Source: a virus
Taxonomy: Duplodnaviria > Caudoviricetes
Virus record (IMG/VR): IMGVR_UViG_3300025296_001836
Location: 1 to 28,509 of that record
Reading direction: 5' to 3' (one strand)
DNA: 28,509 bases
Below are positions 209-25,637 of the stretch, one piece after another. The notes beneath the pieces are model-generated. The model had not been told where the DNA came from, made no database searches, and saw only the letters and a program-made list of their open reading frames with translations. The stretch's first letter is position 1. Each line of letters starts with the position of its first letter. The position numbers and the translations under genes are program-made.

Positions 209-901
209 ATGACAACGGACTTTGTGACAAGAGCAGATCAGCTAGAGTCCTCAGGAACACCGCTTAGGCGTTTCTGGGGCACGTTCCATGACTACGAGAT
301 TAAGATGGACTCCCGGCAGGAAGGTCGGTATCTCGTAGACTTGAACTTTACCGACATTGAGATCGTACCGTTCCCAGACGACCATGAGTTGTTCCCCGGA
401 GCCAAAGGTTCGGTAACTCCTTATAACTACCCCGTATGCCAGATCAACATGAGGTATAATAAGGGTAGGTCAGGAGGCGTGTCGGACCGGGGCGGTTGGG
501 GAATGTTCCTGCGCTCAATGGAGGAGCAGGGTTTCTTGGACCTCGTTGAGTCCAAGGGGTCTAGGTGGCTTATGGAGGCTGAGGATAACCACCTCTACGG
601 CGAGAACGATGCGGGGGAGGAGATCCGAGGTATGGTCTGGAGCGTTGTCGAGTCGAGTACGAAACCTACAAGCGCGGCAGATAGCAGTAACGGTTCAAGC
701 CTGACAGAGGATGAGCTAAAGCAGCTGCTAAGCCTCATTGATGGGAAGGATCTCAGCGAGTTCTCGCAGGCTGCCCTGCAGGACCCAGTTGGTCGGAAGG
801 TTCAGAGCGAGATATTCAACAACAAGCTTGTGGCAAGCTGGATTAGTGAGGGGTTAGTGGAGCTGGAAGGAGAGACCTACAAAGTCATAGCGGGTAAGTA
901 G
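209..901 (+). CDS. Hypothetical acidic protein, possibly ssDNA-binding (SSB-like)
   Basis: 230 aa with SD GGAGG. Aromatic, beta-rich N-domain, then a Ser/Thr linker and a small helical C-domain. The SSB role is inferred only from its position upstream of the exonuclease and Sak4-like genes. Confidence 0.6.
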   Translation: MTTDFVTRADQLESSGTPLRRFWGTFHDYEIKMDSRQEGRYLVDLNFTDIEIVPFPDDHELFPGAKGSVTPYNYPVCQINMRYNKGRSGGVSDRGGWGMFLRSMEEQGFLDLVESKGSRWLMEAEDNHLYGENDAGEEIRGMVWSVVESSTKPTSAADSSNGSSLTEDELKQLLSLIDGKDLSEFSQAALQDPVGRKVQSEIFNNKLVASWISEGLVELEGETYKVIAGK

Positions 902-910
902 GAGCTGTTA

Positions 911-999
911 GGGCTGCGGCGGTGTGGTGCGACACACAAGGCCTAGAGGTGGACTCTTTAGGAACTCCCAGAGTCGGTTGGAATCCGGCCCGCAGCCCA
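911..999 (+). ncRNA. Non-canonical tRNA-like cloverleaf RNA
   Basis: GGGCTGCGG (911-919) pairs with CCGCAGCCC (990-998). D-like arm GTGTG/CACAC (922-937). Central hairpin CCTAGAG/CTTTAGG (942-962). T-arm GTCGG-TTGGAAT-CCGGC (973-989) stacks directly on the acceptor stem. It fills the gap between two CDSs. Confidence 0.75.
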
Positions 1000-1023
1000 G
1001 TCTCTCAAGTAGGAGTTGGTAGA

Positions 1024-1467
1024 ATGAAACACAAAGATATAACGCCGATGGTCAAGGCGCTATCCGAGGTAAAGTGCCCAGAACCTGGGTGTCCTAACGT
1101 TGAAGGCTTTGATGGTCTATACAATCCAGGCTGCAATACCTGCAACGACACTGGGCGCAAGTATTCCCTGACAGAGCCCTGTCCTGGACTACCCCGACTA
1201 CACGTGGCCTTCGGGCCTATTAAACACCGAGCAGAACCGCATGGCTGCTGCGATGGCTCAGGCACGAGGCTGGTGTCCGAGGAGGTGGCCGCAATTCGCA
1301 TACTGGAATGCTCGAAGCCTGGTGAAGGTATAGCACGCTTACCTAATGGGTGGACTACCGACCTCGGATGGGGAACGATGGCAAATCCTAAGGATACTAC
1401 CGCTACCATAACGATCATTCAAGCAGCCGCCAAGCTAGAAGGAGCCACATATGAACTTCACACTTGA
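1024..1467 (+). CDS. Cys-rich protein with DnaJ-type Zn-finger-like motifs (CxxCxxTG, CxGxG)
   Basis: Start reassigned from GTG 922 to ATG 1024, which has SD AGGAG at 1011-1015. Motifs KCPEPGC, CNTCNDTG and CCDGSG. Confidence 0.75.
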   Translation: MKHKDITPMVKALSEVKCPEPGCPNVEGFDGLYNPGCNTCNDTGRKYSLTEPCPGLPRLHVAFGPIKHRAEPHGCCDGSGTRLVSEEVAAIRILECSKPGEGIARLPNGWTTDLGWGTMANPKDTTATITIIQAAAKLEGATYELHT

Positions 1468-2119
1468 CCCCAGACTACAGCACGAGCTAGAAGACCGCGT
1501 GAGGTCCAAGTACATATCATCTCGAGACGACCTCCATGTGACGGACCTTATTAGGTGCCTAACTGCCACCTATTATGACAAGGTAGATCCTCTACCATTC
1601 GAGGATCAGTCTGTTATGTTCTTTGCGATTGGATTTGCTTTGGAAGAGGTCATGCTTCGTAACGGGGCTGAGAAGCCCCAGGTTGAAGAGGTGGACGGCA
1701 TAGTTATGACTGAGGACTATATCTCACTGTCAGGAAATGTGGGGGTAGACCTAAAGACTACAAGGATGAGGCTGGATAAGGACACAGGCATCCCCACGTA
1801 TGGGTGGCCGGAGTCTTGGATCAAACAGTTCATGGCTTACGCTAGGAAGCGGGGGTCGTTGTACTACTCTGTAGCAGTGATAGAGCTGATAGCTGCTAAG
1901 CTGACGTGTGGAACTTTCACGTTCACGCAGGAGGAGCTGGACGATAACTGGAAGTATATGCTAGAGCGTCGAGATATCTACACGGATGCCATGTTTCAGG
2001 CGGAGCCGCCTGAGTCGTTCAAGTATAATGAGGACTGGGAGTGCAAGAATAAGACTTCCACATGTAGGTATTTGATGAGGTGTCAGCAGAGGCAGAAGAT
2101 AGAAATGGTTAGGCAGTAA
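1451..2119 (+). CDS. Cas4-like PD-(D/E)XK exonuclease (Fe-S type)
   Basis: N-terminal HVTDLIRC, catalytic TEDY...VDLKTT, QxxxY helix (KQFMAYA) and a C-terminal three-Cys cluster WEC...TCRY..RC. This is the 1+3 Cys layout of Cas4/AddB nucleases. Confidence 0.85.
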   Translation: MNFTLDPRLQHELEDRVRSKYISSRDDLHVTDLIRCLTATYYDKVDPLPFEDQSVMFFAIGFALEEVMLRNGAEKPQVEEVDGIVMTEDYISLSGNVGVDLKTTRMRLDKDTGIPTYGWPESWIKQFMAYARKRGSLYYSVAVIELIAAKLTCGTFTFTQEELDDNWKYMLERRDIYTDAMFQAEPPESFKYNEDWECKNKTSTCRYLMRCQQRQKIEMVRQ

Positions 2120-2129
2120 AGGAGCCGCA

Positions 2130-2963
2130 ATGAGTACAAAGCTAGGAATGAGAGAGCTAGATCTAAGTGTAGGTGGGCTACCGCCGGGAGTAGCCGTACT
2201 GGTAGGCCCGCCAGGTACCGTCAAGACTACCACTGCTATGACTTGGCCAGGTAAGGTCATGATCTATGACTTTGACTTGGGAGCCCAACGAGCGTGGAAA
2301 GTTCGCGAGCTTATGGCACAGGGAGTGGTCAAGGTTAAACAGGTGCCAATTCCTGAGAAGTCTATCACTACCCGGTACCAACGGATGGAGGGGTTCAGAG
2401 ATATCTGGCGTGAGTTCACCAAGGACTTCTTCGAGACCTGTGAGAATCCAGAGTATCGCACTATAGTCATAGACACCATGACATATGAGTGGAGCTTGTG
2501 TTGTGATGCTTATTTGGAGGAGCTACAGGACGCTCAGCTAGAAAGAGAGCCTAACAAGAAGGATATACGCCGACAGCTTACGCAAATGGAGTTTCGTGAG
2601 CCTAATGCTAGGCAGAGTACGCTGTTCAGTACTGCCAGAGGCTATGGCAAGTGGCTCATAATGGTCGCGCATGAGGCAGATGACTATGCCGTACTGAAGG
2701 ACCCAGAAGGTCGTGAGGTTAAGGATGAGGATGGTAGGCCTGTAAGCGTAGTTGTAGGGAGTAAGCCTGACGGGTTTAAGCGTACGGTAGGCATGTCAGA
2801 CTGGGTGTTTTGGTTTAGGACCGAGCAGAAGGACGGTGAAGTGCCTGTACCCTTTGCCAAGATATCTAAGTCAGGCTGGGGGATAGATTTAGTAGGCGTA
2901 GAGATGGAGCAGCCGTCGCTGAAGATGCTAGAGGATAGGCTGGTACAGTTGGGGAGGCTATAA
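2130..2963 (+). CDS. P-loop ATPase, Sak4/AAA_24-like phage recombinase
   Basis: Walker A GPPGTVKT, YDFDLG strand, Walker B TIVIDTMT and IMVAHE strand. 277 aa, adjacent to the exonuclease. Confidence 0.8.
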   Translation: MSTKLGMRELDLSVGGLPPGVAVLVGPPGTVKTTTAMTWPGKVMIYDFDLGAQRAWKVRELMAQGVVKVKQVPIPEKSITTRYQRMEGFRDIWREFTKDFFETCENPEYRTIVIDTMTYEWSLCCDAYLEELQDAQLEREPNKKDIRRQLTQMEFREPNARQSTLFSTARGYGKWLIMVAHEADDYAVLKDPEGREVKDEDGRPVSVVVGSKPDGFKRTVGMSDWVFWFRTEQKDGEVPVPFAKISKSGWGIDLVGVEMEQPSLKMLEDRLVQLGRL

Positions 2964-8632: not shown

Positions 8633-11426
8633 CCGATACATTGTCGGGTCTAGTACTCCCACTCCACTGCCTCACACTAGCCTGACTACGCTGTTTAGCT
8701 TGCTGCACACGGCTGGTTAGCATACTCCAGTAATCTCGGTGACGGTCGTCTGCGTCGAGCTTCAGCCTATCAGCTATACCACCTCGTTGAGTTGCAAGGT
8801 CTCTGAAACCTGCCGACTGCCGGAAGTAGGCTACAGCTTCCGATAACCAGTGGTCGGCCTCGGATAGGTAAAGCTCACCCTTACTCTGCCATCCTTTAGC
8901 TTCGTCAAAGTATGTACGGACTTCCAGTACACGAGTTTGAGCCTCAGCTATGTAAGCCTGAGCCCCGTCTATATACTGACGTGCTTCATTGATATAGCTC
9001 GCTGACATTGCGTTACGCTCACGGGCCTCGGCGACGTAAGCCTGAGACATCTCATTACGCTGGCCGGCTTCCACACTTAGTATCTGGGCTATAGCGTTAT
9101 GTTGTTCAGCTTCAGCTACCAGTATAGCCGAGATAGCATTGCGTCCTCCAGCCTCGTCAATAAACTTAGACGACATAGCGTTACGCTGGTTAGCCTCATC
9201 TACATAGGCTTCAGTCATGACTCGGCGGGCTTGAGCTTCCTGAACGTACTGGGTACTCATATTATTACGCTCAGCTGCAGCACCAAGAGCTACCTGAGCT
9301 GCAGCATGTCGCTGAGAGGATTCTTCAATTAGCCTGGCAGACATTTCATTACGGGATTGGGACTCCGATATAAATGCCTGGGCGCCTACCGCCCACTCGG
9401 CGGCTTCACTAAGGTAACGAGATACCTGAAGCATACGTCCTTCGGCCTCACGGATATAGGTGTTGGCTTGGGCGGTATGTCTGTCAGCTTCGGCCAGGAA
9501 GTCCTTGCGTCTGTCGGCGTAGGCTTTAGCTATCTCTATACTAGCGAGTGCGTACTCCTGATTAAGTTCAGCCGCTCTATCGCCGAGGTTAACCTTGTCT
9601 ATAAGACCGTCGCCTGCTTGGAGGTACTCTTCAGCTCCAGAATCTACATGAGTTGAACTACCCACGTCGTCTACGAGGAAGTCCTCAATTCCTGGATCAT
9701 CAAATGTCCAGGTGTTCTCAGCGCTCTTGAGGTCGCCAGCTGATGCATCAGTCTTGTGGACTAGTTCTAGGAAGGTAGCAACTTTATCGAGTGCCGTATC
9801 TGCTAGAGCGTGGAAGTCGGGAGCGCTAGGGATTTTATCTAAGGCTTCCGTCAGTGAGTTAGTAGCTGCGCTGATGAATGTAGCTACCTGATCGAGAGCA
9901 GTATTCGCATCAGTGTTGTTCTGGTCTACTTTGTCTAGCGCCTCTACCGCGTCGAAGACTGGAGACTCTCGACGGAAGTCTCCTGTCAAGTCTGATGTAA
10001 AGGACACTGACACTGTGAAGTCATTCGTTCCTTTAGCTGCTACCACAAATCGACTATCGTAGGTTGAATCTCCTGTACCGAAGATATCAATGATATCTCC
10101 AACACTAAGCCCGTGAGCGGTGGAGGTGAACTTAGTACTCTTACCTCCATTGGCGGTAGCTGCAGCAGATATATGCCCGACAATAGGACGGAGTTTATCT
10201 AGCTCAGTCCCGGCTTCTCCAGTGTGAGTAGCTACCTTACCCAAAGCCGCGCCAGCTTCATCAGTGTGAGTTGTGACTTTGTCAAGAGCAGCATCTGCTT
10301 CTGTTCCGCTATGAGTGGCTACTTTATCTAACGCAGTTGGAGCCTTCACAGATGAGTGTTTAGTTACTTCATCTAGCGCAGCCTCAGCCCGGCTAGTATG
10401 GGTAGGTATTTTGTCTAAAGCTTTACCAGCCTCAGCAGTATGCGTACCGACTTTATCTAGAGCAGTGTCTGCTTCCCCGGTATGGGTTGCTACCTTAGCT
10501 AACGCATCAAATGTAGGCTTGCCTGCAGCTGTACCTATGAGAGACTCTACCTTATCCAGCGCAGTATTGATATCCGCTAGTGGGGTAGTAGTACCGTCTA
10601 GAGCAGCAGTAATCTTAGCATACGGGCCGGTTGTAGAGGTTTTGAGTTCATTCAGTGCGGCCTCGGCTGACGCGAACGCTCCAGAAGCGTTAAGTAGCTG
10701 CCTGGCTGCAGAGTCCCCGTCCTTGATAGACTGGAGATTCTGCTCCCTAGACTTCATGGCTAAGGCATAAGCTATCACTCCATTAACCATGACTTCATCA
10801 AGGAACCTAGGGAATGAACCGTTAGCTGAGTCTGTAGGAGCGGTATGCTCAGCAAAGTAATACACACGGATATGGTCTTTGTCGGCTTGTGAGGATTGAG
10901 ACTCGCCTTCCGCAGCAGTCACCCAGAGGATACCGGCGAAGATATAGTACTGGTTAAATGATTGAGGTACATCTCCTACAGGCCACTCTATTCTGGAAGG
11001 CAGCAGCATGTCAGTTAGGCCGGTAAGGTCTAGAGCTATCCTAGACTTGTCATAGTCCGCAGTGGCGGCGGCTGCAGATAGACCTCCTCCACTTATAGCA
11101 TTGACCGTTCCGTTAGCATAGTCCATCGTGTAGTCAGTATCTCGAACGTAAGTGGTACCAGACTGTTTGATAACCTCGGACCCGTGTTTGATAGGCTTAT
11201 TAGCTAGCGACACAGCAGTGCCTATTATCACAGTGAAGGACTCAGCCGTTACCTTGTAATCTATAGTAGTCTCCTGAATCTTCTCGTCGGGTATGAGCCG
11301 ACTAAAGTCTCCAGTAACTCTGTCAACCATGCGGTTGAGTTCAGCATTAGTCCAGACAACTGTGTCGGTAGTTGGAGAGGACAGCTCCAGCCTAGCAGAG
11401 TCTCGTATGGTAGATCGGTTAGCCAT
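8622..11426 (-). CDS. Virion protein: head-tail adaptor-like N-domain with a long helical-repeat insert
   Basis: 934 aa with SD GGAGGT. N-terminal R..IR..AR.EL...W...ELN helices, a DYTMDYANGTV beta insert and a P.FLDEVMVNGVIAYAL helix typical of adaptor/connector proteins, followed by about 650 aa dominated by 14-aa-periodic helices. Confidence 0.7.
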   Translation of the reverse strand: MANRSTIRDSARLELSSPTTDTVVWTNAELNRMVDRVTGDFSRLIPDEKIQETTIDYKVTAESFTVIIGTAVSLANKPIKHGSEVIKQSGTTYVRDTDYTMDYANGTVNAISGGGLSAAAATADYDKSRIALDLTGLTDMLLPSRIEWPVGDVPQSFNQYYIFAGILWVTAAEGESQSSQADKDHIRVYYFAEHTAPTDSANGSFPRFLDEVMVNGVIAYALAMKSREQNLQSIKDGDSAARQLLNASGAFASAEAALNELKTSTTGPYAKITAALDGTTTPLADINTALDKVESLIGTAAGKPTFDALAKVATHTGEADTALDKVGTHTAEAGKALDKIPTHTSRAEAALDEVTKHSSVKAPTALDKVATHSGTEADAALDKVTTHTDEAGAALGKVATHTGEAGTELDKLRPIVGHISAAATANGGKSTKFTSTAHGLSVGDIIDIFGTGDSTYDSRFVVAAKGTNDFTVSVSFTSDLTGDFRRESPVFDAVEALDKVDQNNTDANTALDQVATFISAATNSLTEALDKIPSAPDFHALADTALDKVATFLELVHKTDASAGDLKSAENTWTFDDPGIEDFLVDDVGSSTHVDSGAEEYLQAGDGLIDKVNLGDRAAELNQEYALASIEIAKAYADRRKDFLAEADRHTAQANTYIREAEGRMLQVSRYLSEAAEWAVGAQAFISESQSRNEMSARLIEESSQRHAAAQVALGAAAERNNMSTQYVQEAQARRVMTEAYVDEANQRNAMSSKFIDEAGGRNAISAILVAEAEQHNAIAQILSVEAGQRNEMSQAYVAEARERNAMSASYINEARQYIDGAQAYIAEAQTRVLEVRTYFDEAKGWQSKGELYLSEADHWLSEAVAYFRQSAGFRDLATQRGGIADRLKLDADDRHRDYWSMLTSRVQQAKQRSQASVRQWSGSTRPDNVSANL
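8820..9491 (-). repeat. 16 tandem 14-aa (42-nt) degenerate repeats, consensus EAxxRxxxxxxYxx
   Basis: Unbroken 14-residue register from EADRHTAQANTYIR to EADHWLSEAVAYFR. Confidence 0.9.
10190..10570 (-). repeat. Tandem 14-15-aa repeats, consensus ALDKVATHTxEAxx
   Basis: ALAKVATHTGEADT / ALDKVGTHTAEAGK / ALDKIPTHTSRAEA / ALDEVTKHSSVKAPT / ALDKVATHSGTEADA / ALDKVTTHTDEAGA / ALGKVATHTGEAGT. More ALDK units follow at about 9,770-9,945. Confidence 0.9.
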
Positions 11427-19040: not shown

Positions 19041-22000
19041 TTATTCTTCCTCTTTTATGAATCCATAATTAGTCCTCAGCCTCCGCCATGCTTCGCGACC
19101 TTTATTACTTACCGGCTGTCTGCCCGTCCAGAGTACTAACCTCGCATCCATCTCTGGATCAAGCATACGCAGACGGCGACGGAATTCTGTCAGCTTAGAC
19201 TGAAACTGAGATACGATATTATCTCCAGCATCATTCGTTTCGGCTAGCAGCTCTCTCCTCTCATCCACGTCGTCTGTAGCATTAGCTCTACGAACCACAG
19301 CCTGGTCATCTTCGGGGAGTTGGCTTAGTACCAAGTCAAAGGTGTTCTGATAAGGCCTCACATACTGTTCGTAGTCCTCCCGCCGATGACGTTCGAGAGG
19401 AGACTCTGATCCTCTAATCCGCTTGTTAAACGACTCCTGGCGGCTTGGAGGAACCGCACCAGCAATCATTTGACGGGTGAGGAAGAACCTATCCCAGTCT
19501 GGAGTGATCTGGCCTATCTCTGGGTCTAGACGTTCTTCAAGCTCAACCTGGAAGTATAAAGCTATTAGCTCGCTCTCCACGTCCATGAGTATGGGATCAT
19601 AGCCCATGAGTTTGGACCATTCTTTACGCTCATCTAACGTCAACGGTATGACTACGTCTTCTCCGTCAACTTCTGATATGAACCTAGGGTCAGCCTGCTT
19701 ATCTTGTATAACCTGATGTACTCGCTCGTTCAGCTTTCGCGTCTCTGCAAGCCACCATTGACGGTCCCGTAAGCCGCTGAGCCATTCCGAGTCTAGGTTA
19801 TACTGAGCCTGGCTAGTAGAGTTAGATTCTCTCTCAACCTCATCCCAGAACTGACGATATATAGCTAAAGTCTGTCCTAGTTCAGACTCTTGGAGATAAC
19901 CGGAAGCTCCACGGAATTGAGTGAATCCCTCAAGCTCTCGTACTATCTCCTTACACTCAAACGGGACACCTATGAATTCTTCTAACCTCAGCCCTGCCCG
20001 TTGAGCTTGCTCTTGAACCGCCTCCGTTATGCCCGTACACTCGGATATGACCCGTCTAGCGTCACGCTCGAACTTGAGTCTCTCTTCAGGTCTGAATCTT
20101 AATAGCCCCATGTGAATGTTGACTAAGTTGAATTGAGCTACCTCTCGCTGACCCTTAGCCCACCAAGCTTCATCATCCTCGGTCAGCTTAGTACCAGACA
20201 CTCTTTTGGTTAGTATATCTAGGCCCGGTCCTCCAAGCTTACCTACGGCCTGGCTAACCTGGTAGTCTCTAAACCTATTAGGCATAAGCTGCTCAAGTAT
20301 AGTCTTAGCTGACGCACTATCCGGGCGAGCAGCTATATAAGCTTCCAAGGGAGTTTGGATTAGTGGAGGTATAATCTCACCTAGCTGACTCTGACCGGTA
20401 GCGGCTCCAAACGCCGCAAAGCTTCCCGAGATAAATATATTAGGATAGAATCCAAACCGACTCATCTGGTCAAAGGCTGATGCTAGACCAGGTACTCGGT
20501 CGTAGAAGTCTGGATAGTCCCGCTGAATTAGCCGCCTCATCCCGCCCATCCAGATAGTTCCACGGAGGAAGTTAACCTCCCAGCCTCCAAGTGGAGTCCT
20601 CACATATCCGTTATCGGTGTAGTCTTGATACTTAGCTAACGACGCCTGCATACCTGGGGTGCGAACGAAGCTTCTAGCCAACCAGAACATTCTATGAGTC
20701 TCATAAGTCCAGAATGGGAATATTGCTCGTCCTACGGCGTTAACTGCTGTGGCGCTAGTGTAGTCTGGGAAGTCTAGCTCAAACTGCTTGCTTGTGCGAT
20801 CGAACGCTCGTTGACGGCGAGTTCTCCACGAGTCATCAAATAGCTCGGGTGCTTCAGTCCTAAGTCTACTCCTCACACGATCACCGAATTTCTTAAGTGA
20901 AGCCCTTCCTTGCTGGGGTAGTAGACTCCGACTACGTTGGCCCAGGCTTATAAGCTCTCTCTTTAATGCTTGTACCTGAGCTATACGAGGTCCGGCTACA
21001 CCTGCTACTCCAGGAGACTGTCTCATACCTTGAAGTATCTCGTCATACACCTGGCCTATAGCAGGCTTTGTAAATCCTAAAGCTTCAGGCAGTGTTCCAG
21101 GACTAACCGCTTGATCTCTAGCCATGACGGTCTTGGCTCTAGCGTATACCTGCTCTACCCAGAGTAGCCTATCCTTAAACGCTCCTATCTCTGGGATATA
21201 GAGCCCCCGCGATAAGTCGGTAGGTACTGAGTTAAATAGCTCTGAAATGTGAGCTAGAGTCAGTTCACCGTCACTCACGTTACGTATTTTGCCTAGAGGA
21301 AGATTCCCAGTACGAGCCTGCGACTCTAGTGTCTCAGCTGACGACTCTGCCATAGGAGATCTCATCCTCTCCCAAAGAGCGTCGCGGCTAAGGTCAAACT
21401 CTCGCCACCAAGCCTCGATTTCAGGGTGAGTTGTAGTAGGTTTTCCACCGGAAGCACGAATCTTAGCTTCAAGTGTCTTAAGCTCAGATGTTAGCCTCTG
21501 TGTTAGGTTCATCTGCTCAAGTCTCACTTCACGAATAAGAGCAAAATGACGTAGATGTTGGTCGAGAAGCTGCTCGTATTGGGTCCGCGTAGCGTCATCC
21601 AGTCCTAGTCCTGAAGGCCTGGCTTCAAACACTGACGCCGGTACGACCTGCTCCGGTCCAAACAGCTGCCCACCTCCTCCTATACGAACACCTCTAAACT
21701 CAGTTATCTCCGGATGCAGGATAGTTAGCTCTCTACCCAACTGCCTCACAGCAGATACACCTAAGTCACCGACATCACTCCCAAAAAGAGCAACCTCAGC
21801 ACTTCCTAACTCATCCCCAATAGTGAGATTCAACTTCGTTACAAAGTTACCTTCTAGATCTTCGACTACATATGCAACGGCCCGAGTGCCTGGCTCTATG
21901 ACTGGAACCTCTTCAGGGTCTATCTCAACTCGTCTAAGCCTAAACCGGCTAGGTTGCCGTGAAGTAGACTCTATAGCTCCTTTCAGCATAGTCACATACT

Positions 22001-25000
22001 GCTCTACACGCTCGCCAGAATCCTTAATGAAGGGTGCTAGTACTCCCTCCCACATCTCGTCGTGTATCCGGACTTTAACAGCTCGGTTAAGGATATTATC
22101 TGTATACTCCTTAGTCGCACGAAGTTGAGTGTGTATAAGATCTCCCGCGTTCTCAGTGATAAAGTGTAGCGTCTGCACGTAGGAGTCGAACTCAGCTTGA
22201 GTAGTCGGAGGATTCTCCATTAGTGCATCGACTAGGGAGTTTAACCTCTGCCTCCCCAGCTCTGGCCCATGCAACACTTCCTGCATGATGAGCTCTTCAA
22301 CGTCATCGAAGGTCTGGCTAAGCTGTGGAAATAGCTGGTCGGACTCTAGCTTAGCTATGATATGATCTGAGCCGGTAGGACCTATATCTGGATACTGAGA
22401 GACTAACTCTCTAACCTTGGCAGCTCTAACCTTCCCAGGAGTGAAGTCGTCGCCCAAGCGACTAAGCGAGTCTGCTAAGGTTGTGGCTCTGAGCTCTGCC
22501 TCCTTGGTTACCTGCCTTATAACCTTGGCGTCGACCCCAGCTGCTAGAGTACTGGCTTCTTCCTGGATTATCCGATCTACAGTACTCATAACATCAGGAG
22601 CGTCGCGCCAGAGCTCCCGTGCGATTCCACGGTTTAGGTAGTTGCCTTGCTGCTGGAGACCCACCTTAGCTCCAGTGTTTATCAAAGCTTCTTCCAGTCC
22701 GCCATAGAACTTCTGCCAGGCTGTTAGCCTTCTACGGGAAGCCCGTCGGTAAGCATTATCACTCATAAACGGAAGCTTACCCTTAACCGCACGTAGAGTG
22801 TCGGATATAGGCAGTGATCCTAGCTCCAGAGTTACTCCCGCAGCTTCTTCAAATACGGGTTGTCTCCCACTGAGCCCGGTAGTCCTAAATACGAGCTCGC
22901 GAGCCTGGTTACCTTCATACATAGGATTAAGCCCTGCGTATATAGTCTTGGACCCGTTCTCCATTACGTTGAATGGAGAGTAGAACGTAAACATGAGGTA
23001 CATTCTGGCGGCCCCGCGACTGACCTTATCCAAGTGATTGGCCCAGATAGCTGTAAGTCTGGCGCCTGCTTGAGCTATTGGAGCACCCATAGCAGCTTGC
23101 TGAATCTTTGTCGGTACACTGCTGCTACGATAGCCTGCTTCAGTGTTAGCTCTCACATGGTCGAATACACGGCTGTAGAGGTTAGGGACAGAACTCGCGT
23201 CGTCAACGATGGCTAGTGCACGAGTGTCGACTTGGTCTACTACTTCCTGGATAATGGCTTTAGATGTAGTAGGCGTAGGAGTAACACTTCCCATACCTTG
23301 AAGCTCTGGAAACTCTCGCAGCATCCACCTCTGAGCTATATCAGCGGTATTAGGACTTGTATCACGAACAAGATTAGCTGGGCCGTCTCTAAACCTCTTG
23401 GGTTGTTGGGTTACAAACTCCTCAAACGCTTCAGCGAAGAACTCCTCCTGATTTCTGGGACTAAGATTAGGATGAATACTTGAGAATCGCTTCAGTATTG
23501 ACGGATCGTCTATATGTATAGCATGGGCTATTTCATGAGCAACCTGACTTCTCACTCCTATAGCTGTACTGGGATACACATAAACTTTCCTAGTAACACG
23601 GTCTAGGCTGACATCTAACGAGGATTCCGCCAAAGCAAAGTCATTTATCCTAGATCCAATATTAGTTTCTGTGTGCCTAGTACGTTTAGTTAGCTCCTCA
23701 AAGAAGGTTACAGCCTCATCAATTGTACCTACCTCTGATAATACTGGAAGATTTTCAGGCTTAGGGGTTCTTGCAACATCTAGCATTAGACTTGCCGCCT
23801 CGTCGACAGTAACCACTCTACCGTCTAATCCCATAGTCTGCCCGAGTAAGTCGTCAAGCTGTAGTATCTGATTAGCGTCTAACCCGTCAACTCCTAACCT
23901 TCTCGCCCAGTCTGCAGCCTGCTCAGCTGTAACTGGGTCCCTAGTCCTTAGTATCCTCCCTGCAGCAGTGAAGTCGTCTACCACTCCTGGGTTAGCCTTC
24001 TGCGCCCCCATTGACTGACGGAGGGCTTCTTGAGCTTCTTCTAGAGGTATGTCTCTAAATACTCTCTGCATCCCAGTGTTTCTAGCACTGAATGTCTCGA
24101 CTGAAGCCTTAACCACCCCCAGTGCAGCCCGTGTTTCTGCTGCTAGTACTGCATCTAGCGGCTTAGGCACCGCATGATACATACCCCTCTTGAGCCCCAA
24201 GAACGCCAAGTCCGTCCCCCGCATGAAGCCAGTCTCAATACCCGCTAGCACTGGCCCTACCTTGGGAATAGGCCTCACAATGTTGGCATACATGCCAAAG
24301 CCGAAGTAGCTAATCGGGTCTACTAGCACCTCCGTCATGAACTTCTTAAACCCGTTAGCGTGATGATTCTCAAAGGCATAGCCTAGAGCCTCCCAGGAGT
24401 TGAAGTCTGGGCTAGCACTGGCCTGCTCATAAATCCTGGTGAATTCGTGGAGCTCCTGCTCGCTGGGCTTCAGCCAGTCAAAGGTAGCTATACCTTCAAC
24501 TCGGCCAAGTGCTCCTCCTATCAGGGGTACCTCACCCAGTATAGGATCCTGCTTAACCCCCGCAATATGGCGGATAAATGCTCCCGATAGAGGCTTAGTC
24601 ACGTTATCAATATAGTAGTTGGCAGGTATTAGCATAAACGCTAGAGGCTTACTTAGCATATCCCGAACTACTCGGTCAGTAATCATTCTTTCTAGAACAT
24701 CAATCTCTGTATTAGCTAGACTACTCTGCATAACTGCCAGTCGAGCGTCATTCTTGACTAGAGACTCTCTCAAGTTAGTGAGGTTATCTTGCATAGCATC
24801 GAGTTCAGCCTGAAGTTCATCCTGACCAAATCCAGCATCGGCAAGTAGAGCCCGCTGTTCTGCCGCAGTTACACCTTCAGGTAGCTTAGGCTGGCTGATC
24901 TCAATCATTGTCTCGAGAAGGTCACGACTACTTCCTAGCAGCACCCCGTAGATACTTGCACTTCGTTGACGGCCAACCTGAGCTATGATCTGATCTCGGC

Positions 25001-25637
25001 GGTCTTCGGTCATCTTAGGTCTATCTCTAACTGCAAGCTGCCTAACCGCACGATCCATCATTATACTAGCCCACTGTATATCTTCGCTTGATAGCCCGTC
25101 TACGCCGTATTGAGCTAGAAGCTGCTCAGGAGTCCGCAGAGGGTTATCCCCTTGTACCGCGTTAGGTATGATTTCCAGTATATGCCGCCTCCAGTTGAGG
25201 CTCTTAGCTTCAGTGACTATAGAGAGTGAAGCTTCTTTAATCTGAGTTTGACGTAAGACTTCCTGAGCTATAAATTCGGGAGTCTTAATAGTAGGAACAA
25301 CTGCTGGAGGATTAAGACCTGTTGGATTGAACTGAGCAAACGTGTTAAGGAAGGAAGCTCCCGCTATTTTAAGCTTATCTATCAAACCTAAAGGGTCAGG
25401 CCTTCCTAGCGGAGGAGGTCCTGGCCTGATAGTAGGCTGTATAGCTACATCCGCCGCAGTTCTATCCAGCTCTTGAGTTGGCGCAGGATCCTCTCCAGAC
25501 AGCACTTCCTGCCTACGTCCTAGAGCTATCTGCGCTGAGGTGAGTGTAGCCCGTTCTCTCGTGAACCCTGGGAAAGGTTCAGTCTTAGGGTCTACTCTAG
25601 GTATAATATCTCGTCCGGGCTCTAGTATTTTAGCCAT
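19041..25637 (-). CDS. Giant mostly helical protein, putative internal virion/ejection or polyvalent protein
   Basis: 2,198 aa, starting immediately after the portal stop. Contains a VDPISYFGFG hydrophobic segment, a zincin motif HEIAH...EEFFAEAF and a C-terminal DY...IFPFWTYE region. Confidence 0.7.
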   Translation of the reverse strand: MAKILEPGRDIIPRVDPKTEPFPGFTRERATLTSAQIALGRRQEVLSGEDPAPTQELDRTAADVAIQPTIRPGPPPLGRPDPLGLIDKLKIAGASFLNTFAQFNPTGLNPPAVVPTIKTPEFIAQEVLRQTQIKEASLSIVTEAKSLNWRRHILEIIPNAVQGDNPLRTPEQLLAQYGVDGLSSEDIQWASIMMDRAVRQLAVRDRPKMTEDRRDQIIAQVGRQRSASIYGVLLGSSRDLLETMIEISQPKLPEGVTAAEQRALLADAGFGQDELQAELDAMQDNLTNLRESLVKNDARLAVMQSSLANTEIDVLERMITDRVVRDMLSKPLAFMLIPANYYIDNVTKPLSGAFIRHIAGVKQDPILGEVPLIGGALGRVEGIATFDWLKPSEQELHEFTRIYEQASASPDFNSWEALGYAFENHHANGFKKFMTEVLVDPISYFGFGMYANIVRPIPKVGPVLAGIETGFMRGTDLAFLGLKRGMYHAVPKPLDAVLAAETRAALGVVKASVETFSARNTGMQRVFRDIPLEEAQEALRQSMGAQKANPGVVDDFTAAGRILRTRDPVTAEQAADWARRLGVDGLDANQILQLDDLLGQTMGLDGRVVTVDEAASLMLDVARTPKPENLPVLSEVGTIDEAVTFFEELTKRTRHTETNIGSRINDFALAESSLDVSLDRVTRKVYVYPSTAIGVRSQVAHEIAHAIHIDDPSILKRFSSIHPNLSPRNQEEFFAEAFEEFVTQQPKRFRDGPANLVRDTSPNTADIAQRWMLREFPELQGMGSVTPTPTTSKAIIQEVVDQVDTRALAIVDDASSVPNLYSRVFDHVRANTEAGYRSSSVPTKIQQAAMGAPIAQAGARLTAIWANHLDKVSRGAARMYLMFTFYSPFNVMENGSKTIYAGLNPMYEGNQARELVFRTTGLSGRQPVFEEAAGVTLELGSLPISDTLRAVKGKLPFMSDNAYRRASRRRLTAWQKFYGGLEEALINTGAKVGLQQQGNYLNRGIARELWRDAPDVMSTVDRIIQEEASTLAAGVDAKVIRQVTKEAELRATTLADSLSRLGDDFTPGKVRAAKVRELVSQYPDIGPTGSDHIIAKLESDQLFPQLSQTFDDVEELIMQEVLHGPELGRQRLNSLVDALMENPPTTQAEFDSYVQTLHFITENAGDLIHTQLRATKEYTDNILNRAVKVRIHDEMWEGVLAPFIKDSGERVEQYVTMLKGAIESTSRQPSRFRLRRVEIDPEEVPVIEPGTRAVAYVVEDLEGNFVTKLNLTIGDELGSAEVALFGSDVGDLGVSAVRQLGRELTILHPEITEFRGVRIGGGGQLFGPEQVVPASVFEARPSGLGLDDATRTQYEQLLDQHLRHFALIREVRLEQMNLTQRLTSELKTLEAKIRASGGKPTTTHPEIEAWWREFDLSRDALWERMRSPMAESSAETLESQARTGNLPLGKIRNVSDGELTLAHISELFNSVPTDLSRGLYIPEIGAFKDRLLWVEQVYARAKTVMARDQAVSPGTLPEALGFTKPAIGQVYDEILQGMRQSPGVAGVAGPRIAQVQALKRELISLGQRSRSLLPQQGRASLKKFGDRVRSRLRTEAPELFDDSWRTRRQRAFDRTSKQFELDFPDYTSATAVNAVGRAIFPFWTYETHRMFWLARSFVRTPGMQASLAKYQDYTDNGYVRTPLGGWEVNFLRGTIWMGGMRRLIQRDYPDFYDRVPGLASAFDQMSRFGFYPNIFISGSFAAFGAATGQSQLGEIIPPLIQTPLEAYIAARPDSASAKTILEQLMPNRFRDYQVSQAVGKLGGPGLDILTKRVSGTKLTEDDEAWWAKGQREVAQFNLVNIHMGLLRFRPEERLKFERDARRVISECTGITEAVQEQAQRAGLRLEEFIGVPFECKEIVRELEGFTQFRGASGYLQESELGQTLAIYRQFWDEVERESNSTSQAQYNLDSEWLSGLRDRQWWLAETRKLNERVHQVIQDKQADPRFISEVDGEDVVIPLTLDERKEWSKLMGYDPILMDVESELIALYFQVELEERLDPEIGQITPDWDRFFLTRQMIAGAVPPSRQESFNKRIRGSESPLERHRREDYEQYVRPYQNTFDLVLSQLPEDDQAVVRRANATDDVDERRELLAETNDAGDNIVSQFQSKLTEFRRRLRMLDPEMDARLVLWTGRQPVSNKGREAWRRLRTNYGFIKEEE

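Follow-up and report, generated by a model that had tools for sequence, protein, structure and literature searches.

The elbow formed by the D- and T-loops of tRNA is retained in non-decoding RNAs such as the YrlA Y RNAs and tmRNA. It is also read by processing enzymes: RNase P measures 12 base pairs (bp) from the T-loop and stacks on the elbow, and RNase Z reads the 12-bp branch by stacking on it in turn (PMC11143913, PMC4810234). RNase P cuts phage RNAs and mRNAs, and its known substrates and tRNA-like signals include the C4 RNA of phages P1 and P7, the T4 gene 32 mRNA and the TYMV structure (PMC11143913, PMC4810234). Allo-tRNAs, in which the branch is built as 8/4 or 9/3 and again totals 12 bp, mostly carry G73 or U73; they translate in E. 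coli, and some members are inactive and do not translate (Mukai et al., PMC5389517). As to the elbow itself, normal aminoacylation is reported for a G19C/C56G tRNA variant (PMC3602588), and in a passage of PMC10944890 the term C19-G56 refers not to phages but to the elbow of an A-site tRNA seen in a ribosome structure. Candidate tRNA-like phage RNAs, which overlap ARAGORN calls, are given in PMC10690425. In our literature searches, which covered few subscription papers, we found a description neither of natural C19-G56 phage tRNAs nor of the RNA considered here.

That RNA lies at positions 911–999 of the window, which is an entire linear virus record of 28,509 bases (IMGVR_UViG_3300025296_001836) from an uncultured phage; we call this copy W. 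Comparison of W with phage tRNAs, with described RNA classes and with related loci leads us to regard it as real and unannotated, a tRNA-like RNA that probably does not decode and that has one independent relative. The new part is the second copy in an unrelated phage, not the swapped C19-G56 pair of the elbow.

Results

A tRNA-Like Cloverleaf between Replication Genes

The plus strand of the window carries a replication and recombination run comprising a 230-aa orphan, a cysteine-rich ORF, an exonuclease, a Sak4-like ATPase, a dCTP deaminase and a family A polymerase, with W behind the first of these genes (Table 1). Pfam and PHROG searches with the 230-aa protein returned no match, and 369 relatives were found at E ≤ 0.001. 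The top Foldseek rows for its structure model (pLDDT 92) are bacterial SSBs, weak yet repeated (best E 1.2e-3, none at E ≤ 0.001), and on the basis of this model it is likely to be a single-strand DNA-binding (OB-fold, SSB) protein. The likely assignment of the exonuclease comes from its relatives: the protein itself has no direct Pfam match, and PF12705 is found on 2 of 27 matches, one of them named Cas4/RecB exonuclease. Scans of the plus strand found no promoter-like site upstream of 2440 and no terminator-like site within 72–1585, and since no such site sets the RNA apart, it probably rides within the operon message. Elsewhere in the window, degenerate 42-base (14-residue) repeats occupy 10188–10565 within a 934-aa minus-strand tail-related ORF, and a 2,198-aa ORF at 19041–25637 (−) with no Pfam or PHROG match adjoins capsid and scaffold-like genes.

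Table 1. Features of the tRNA-like RNA and of the neighboring genes (positions in the window)
Feature	Position	Strand	Remarks
Upstream gene	209..901	+	230 aa; stop 9 bases ahead of the RNA
tRNA-like RNA, whole	911..999	+	89 bases; copy in L054 identical; structural relative L287
Acceptor-like helix, 5′ strand	911..919	+	9 bp with 990–998
Linker C8-G9	920..921	+	C8 = C920; same in L287
D-arm	922..937	+	4–5 bp; G18 = 929, C19 = 930
Anticodon-position arm	942..962	+	7 bp; stem 942–948/956–962, one G·U
Anticodon-position loop	949..955	+	G32, U33, GGA, C37, U38
Variable region	963..972	+	10 bases; no stable stem
T-arm	973..989	+	5 bp; stem 973–977/985–989, one U·G; loop 978–984, G56 = 980
Acceptor-like helix, 3′ strand, then unpaired A999	990..999	+	NCCA not encoded (997–1000)
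AGGAG, resembles ribosome-binding site	1011..1015	+	8 bases 5′ of ATG 1024
Downstream gene, likely true start	1024..1467	+	147 aa, cysteine-rich
Exonuclease gene	1451..2119	+	Cas4/PD-(D/E)XK type, likely
Sak4-like ssDNA-annealing ATPase	2130..2963	+	PF13479 E 4.9e-7; phrog_124 E 1.6e-8

The acceptor-like helix consists of a canonical 7 bp (913–919/990–996) and two extra G-C pairs, and the 7 bp together with the 5-bp T-stem make a 12-bp branch of the length found in normal tRNA. Drawn as a 5-bp stem with a 6-base loop, the D-arm has pair probabilities of 0.95, and because C930 and G980 are complementary, a Watson-Crick 19-56 elbow pair is predicted. Every item of the feature list that a first-pass annotation, made by a model from the bare sequence, had given for 911–999 is present, and its expectation that no canonical call would be obtained proved correct: ARAGORN makes no tRNA call on W, and Rfam gives no match at cut-off, with none to tRNA (RF00005) and, as the best match, tRNA-Sec (RF01852) at 18.6 bits and E 0.13, where the cut-off is 47 bits (141 bases searched alone).

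With the outer helix held fixed and the inner bases shuffled, the T-arm, T-loop motif, D-stem and third arm arose jointly in 0 of 300,000 sequences, and a whole-window cloverleaf test gave 1 match in the real sequence and none in 300 Markov-1 simulated windows (both strands); the criteria of both tests were set after the element had been seen. The pairing pattern of W is that of a tRNA cloverleaf and is real rather than a product of chance. The cloverleaf is not the predicted minimum-energy fold at 37°C, which is a competing fold at −42.7 versus −40.9 kcal/mol, i.e., 1.8 kcal/mol lower; the T-stem pairs of the cloverleaf have probabilities of 0.15–0.24, and the folding z-score for 905–1005 is only −1.65. 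When the acceptor, D- and T-arms are enforced, the 7-bp arm at the anticodon position wins (P 0.95), and an alternative GAG/leucine register (939–943/951–955) with a loose variable arm was rejected, being ∼5 kcal/mol worse (P 0.001).

The same bases could in principle be read as protein, in which case the cloverleaf would be a chance fold within coding sequence: the frame from GTG 922 is open, and gene callers chose the resulting 181-aa form for three of four cluster members (P0047 is called from ATG 1024). We find this barely credible. The two null tests speak against it, the AGGAG at 1011–1015 provides a ribosome-binding site in front of ATG 1024, and the extension is missing from both homologues, P0045 (147 aa) and P0046 (123 aa), which begin at the level of that ATG. 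Given these starts and the AGGAG 8 bases before the ATG, the GTG 922 call is likely an over-extension and 902–1023 likely non-coding, much as the first-pass annotation had supposed in calling the extension spurious; coding use of 922–1023 was rejected on its absence from both homologues. Separately, P0045 differs from the product of 1024–1467 by one residue over the C-terminal 100 residues and has a different N-terminus, a pattern that suggests recombination just downstream of the RNA.

The C19-G56 Elbow in Ordinary Phage tRNAs

Scanning viral contigs for a T-arm with G56 followed by CCA yielded 121 loci from 19 of 64 collection parts, which hold 50 distinct ARAGORN tRNAs, 29 with G56 and 21 with C56. 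The D-loop covaries with this base: GC without GG is found in 24 of the G56 tRNAs (both in 2, neither in 3, GG only in 0), and GG only in 16 of the C56 tRNAs (both in 3, GC only in 1, neither in 1). At least ten ARAGORN isotypes are represented among the G56 tRNAs (Leu, Gly, Arg, Thr, Ala, Cys, Lys, Pro, Met, Ser and others). The swap had been noted at the outset both as compensatory and as a sign of tRNA mimicry; judged from these sequences the first description stands, with 24 of 29 G56 phage tRNAs GC-only, but the second does not, since a feature so common among ordinary-looking phage tRNAs of many isotypes is no mark of mimicry.

The tRNA-Ala(UGC) genes of L246/L248 and the tRNA-Leu(UAA) genes of L163/L165 have the same swapped elbow and T-loop as W, and the D-loop of the former is nearly identical to that of W, which likely derives from a phage tRNA of this type. 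Beyond the elbow, W departs from them. C19-G56 phage tRNAs keep U8, pyrimidine 32, purine 37 and a 7-bp acceptor stem, of which W has none; they encode CCA (as the scan pattern required), and W does not; and they mostly lie in tRNA clusters, whereas W stands alone between protein genes. W has the canonical cloverleaf build, with a 7-bp acceptor and a 5-bp T-stem, but not the canonical base set, carrying instead C8, G32 and C37, each of which occurs in 0 of 52 phage tRNAs.

Several of the phage tRNAs are unusual in their own right. In IMG/VR (L091–L211), inverted C19-G56 tRNAs often lie beside normal G19-C56 tRNAs of the same cluster. Three tRNA-Leu genes of 76–77 bases (L165:319-395, L190:201-276 and L203:80-156) are without the long variable arm, two tRNA-Asn(GUU) genes of 88 bases (L135:335-422 and L182:18-105) have one, and a tRNA with anticodon CUA and a C19-G56 elbow (L127:201-279, minus strand) is labeled Pyl by ARAGORN (amber suppressor or recoding).

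A Second Copy in an Unrelated Phage

A looser scan of viral contigs for the D-loop and T-arm yielded 119 loci from 40 of 64 collection parts, three of which have a perfect 12-bp branch: the ordinary tRNA-Ala(UGC) genes of L246 and L248, and L287. The record that carries L287 is 7 kb long and belongs to another kind of phage, with a thymidylate synthase and a virion structural gene. The unconstrained fold of L287 is a five-stem cloverleaf (z −2.78, a level matched by 2 of 200 shuffles), and a call is missing from ARAGORN and Rfam alike. L287 begins ∼5 bases past a stop codon, among consecutive small genes that follow a sequence which by eye resembles a promoter, and is likewise covered by a probable false ORF start; both copies lie just 3′ of a stop codon and 20–25 bases ahead of the next start.

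With the register set by hand from coordinates and two sequences to compare, so that no formal covariation test applies, all 22 comparable pairs form in both RNAs, 13 of them through double changes, 1 through a one-sided change and 8 unchanged. Many double changes are seen between any two tRNAs, and the telling part of the kinship is therefore the shared oddities. Seven D-loop bases are identical, but these lay within the search pattern; outside the pattern, both copies lack CCA, have a 9-bp helix with an A after it, share the linker C8-G9 and carry the loop frame G32-U33-NNN-C37-U38, filled by GGA in W and by UCC in L287. When the middle of L287 is shuffled, this frame arises in 299 of 200,000 sequences (P about 0.0015). 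The two differ in that W is built 7/5 with a stemless variable region and L287 8/4 with a 5-bp variable arm. An RNA model of L287 (R2) scores W at 29.1 bits (E 0.0038 over 421 kb) and no ordinary tRNA above 22.6, and a model of W (R1) places two tRNA-Ala genes (25.1 and 24.6) above L287 (23.1), so that the model scores back a kinship beyond general tRNA-likeness modestly.

Together, W and L287 probably represent a small family of tRNA-shaped RNAs in unrelated phages. Decoding is improbable for both, because C8, G32 and C37 are absent from the 52 phage tRNAs and the middle triplets differ. The initial reading of W as a probably non-decoding tRNA-like RNA is hence supported by a second copy that also lacks an ARAGORN or Rfam call, and the conservation of shape that went with it holds for L287, with its 22 of 22 pairs and 13 double changes, but fails among the 26 distinct relatives of the window's own locus described below.

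Comparison with Described Classes and the Case for a Working tRNA

W shares with tRNA-Sec a long acceptor helix and a long D-stem, and differs from it in the triplet (UCA expected, GGA in W) and in C19-G56. The likeness to allo-tRNAs (PMC5389517) extends to the 12-bp amino-acid branch, the long D-stem with a small loop and the long third stem. W, at 7/5 or, counting the extra pairs, 9/5, is neither 8/4 nor 9/3, while L287, at 8/4, fits; the variable arm is long in L287 and available to W only in the disfavored register (P 0.001); and position 73, G or U in most allo-tRNAs, is C997 (or A999) in W and A in L287. A term search of the supplement of that paper for G56 T-loop strings found neither of those searched. 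Compared with YrlA (RF02553) and tmRNA, the arms of W come in normal tRNA order and neither Rfam nor ARAGORN makes a call; among the 24 window proteins of this linear fragment, Pfam finds no Ro60/TROVE match. With the RNase P-processed signals W would share, by analogy, the way of working, in which a tRNA shape recruits host processing enzymes, but W is a full cloverleaf and a likely tRNA descendant, with no Rfam match and no antisense target. In sum, W falls outside canonical tRNA, tRNA-Sec, YrlA and C4 RNA, and its build is near that of allo-tRNAs.

This nearness raises the question of whether W is an unusual working tRNA, i.e., an allo-tRNA-like missense adaptor or amino-acid donor that would be charged after CCA addition. 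The mark of tRNA-His is G-1:C73, which the pair G912:C997 resembles; the 12-bp branch and U33 are kept; and L287 offers an 8/4 branch, A73 and a long variable arm. It also fits that allo-tRNAs translate in E. coli (PMC5389517) and that a tRNA with the doubly exchanged elbow is charged normally (PMC3602588). We nevertheless consider a working tRNA quite improbable: G32, C37 and C8 are found in 0 of 52 phage tRNAs, the two copies agree neither in the triplet nor at position 73, every identity set is incomplete, and in Rfam the tRNA model gives no match and tRNA-Sec reaches 18.6 of 47 bits.

Occurrence among Relatives and the Case for Decay

A profile search with the exonuclease gave 5 viral and 37 metagenome loci, of which L054 is identical and the others are 28%–55% identical; after L054 and the duplicates L067, L072, L077 and L084 had been dropped, 26 distinct relatives contained the end of the upstream gene. 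None of the 26 has the D-loop or the T-loop motif behind that gene, and R1, run over 41 sources, matched the window only. At the same spot, a stem reached by at most 3 of 60 shuffles is found in 7 of the 26 (about 1 expected) and none is outstanding in the other 19; the idea of a hairpin at this spot in nearly all relatives was rejected on that count.

Nor was a third member found by R1 over 34 virus records, where two matches are ordinary tRNAs by eye and the remaining one had a score like that of tRNA-Cys in L097, or by R2 over 88, 100 and 86 sources and 47 virus records. When viral contigs were scanned with the upstream gene or the exonuclease as a single protein, no relatives emerged, and a strict D-loop plus T-arm pattern had no match in viral contigs; 46 matches to the strict pattern were rejected as chance, having no cloverleaf, and in GTDB genomes it gave none and then 27 chance matches. 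Short matches were all that blastn returned for W against cultured phages and plasmids and for L287 against phages, and tblastn with the exonuclease found no cultured phage.

Absence from all relatives examined would be expected if W were a decaying tRNA gene, acquired by the phage and now functionless, and there are further points of agreement: the variable arm of L287 is seemingly lost in W, the W cloverleaf is only marginally stable, and inactive allo-tRNAs have been described (Mukai et al., PMC5389517). Decay should break stems, however, and the four stems of W are unbroken, with the changes falling on loop and linker positions; moreover, the same unusual bases recur in the unrelated phage of L287. 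We therefore rate decay as improbable.

A Putative Cutting Signal in the Operon Message

Tentatively, and as a reading from sequence, we favor W as a putative tRNA-shaped cutting signal in the early operon message behind the SSB-like gene (T4 gene 32, whose mRNA was mentioned at the outset, encodes an SSB). The D- and T-loops would form the elbow; host RNase P would measure 12 bp from it and cut before G913, or possibly 1–2 bases earlier given the two extra pairs; and RNase Z or E would cut near 997–999. Such cuts would part the SSB message from that of the exonuclease and Sak4 and set free an RNA of ∼85–90 bases. What leads us to prefer this reading is the acceptor-T-D half with its 12-bp branch, common to both copies, together with the want of promoter- or terminator-like isolation. 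W and L287 agree in what processing enzymes read (the 22 pairs, the linker, the D-loop and the T-loop) and differ in the triplet; the branch amounts to 12 bp in each, as 7+5 in W and 8+4 in L287; and the bases C8, G32 and C37, absent from all 52 phage tRNAs, as well as the outstanding stem at the same spot in 7 of 26 relatives, are in accordance with it. Against a cutting signal, the two extra pairs bury positions 73–74, the other 19 relatives have no outstanding stem there, the kinship by model score is modest, and the unconstrained 37°C fold is not the cloverleaf. C56 has also been proposed to contact RNase P RNA (PMC11143913), and a lone C56G change abolished or cut cleavage by plant protein-only RNase P, to 0% and 18% (PMC5039416). 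Finally, both copies retain the G32-U33-NNN-C37-U38 loop, which a pure cutting signal could do without.

It is this loop that favors the main alternative, in which the released RNA would act in trans as a decoy or inhibitor of a host tRNA-reading protein (an anti-phage system's anticodon nuclease or toxin, or a tRNA-handling enzyme) and the G32/C37 loop would serve as bait or protect from cleavage: the odd frame, with a variable triplet, is shared by two unrelated phages and exceeds the needs of a cutting signal. The position of L287 in a small-gene run behind a promoter-like sequence and the patchy presence of the RNA (0 of 26 relatives), as for an accessory counter-defense element, point the same way. 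We hold a decoy to be rather unlikely on the present sequences, as W occurs once and lacks a promoter-like site to itself, Pfam and PHROGs reveal no tRNA and no known defense-related gene among the 24 window proteins, our literature search found no phage example, and the same prior processing would be required. The cutting signal and the decoy can both hold. A broader proposal, which we regard as doubtful, is that W and L287 belong to a mobile, stand-alone family of phage RNAs with a C19-G56 elbow, a 9-bp acceptor helix and, in place of the anticodon loop, the fixed frame, RNAs that host enzymes would excise from early operons and that would serve as non-decoding decoys for tRNA-targeting anti-phage defenses.

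A cis riboregulator or antisense RNA like C4 of phage P1, with loops that pair with the downstream ribosome-binding site or with another message, has in its favor that C4 RNA is an RNase P substrate (PMC11143913) and that bases 963–968 can pair over 6 bp (−8.0 kcal/mol) with the region where ribosomes would bind ahead of the next gene. We think this very improbable: pairing as good arises in 2,097 of 20,000 shuffles, L287 has none of the kind, Rfam gives no match, and the longest outside complement is 10 bases for W (within the 28.5-kb record) and below 9 in the contig of L287. Pairing against the ribosome-binding site and antisense targets were rejected on these shuffle and complement tests.

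As to what follows, ARAGORN and Rfam miss the RNA, and gene callers cover it with probably false N-terminal extensions in both phages, so that a family of phage tRNA look-alikes could go unnoticed in viral catalogues. Should W be a cutting signal, phages would be punctuating replication operons by means of tRNA shape; should it be a decoy, it would be counter-defense in RNA form. The natural G19-C56 inversion in many phage tRNAs, for its part, makes it directly testable whether a given host machine responds to the identity of the elbow bases or to their shape.

Other RNAs and Spacers Behind the SSB-like Gene

Among the relatives, a different, probably three-way-junction RNA lies behind the SSB-like gene at L057:3923-4042, L058:5669-5794 and L056:27-140 (all plus strand, approximate). 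Its two joining strands are fixed and purine-rich, its closing stem and its inner stems carry compensatory changes, and Rfam gives no match; L056 apparently equals L057, leaving two distinct copies. In L078, L079, L085 and L089 the SSB-like gene falls into two ORFs, and multi-branched GC-rich spacers with a common 9-base motif lie 3′ of it at L079:5849-5985 and L085:1309-1420.
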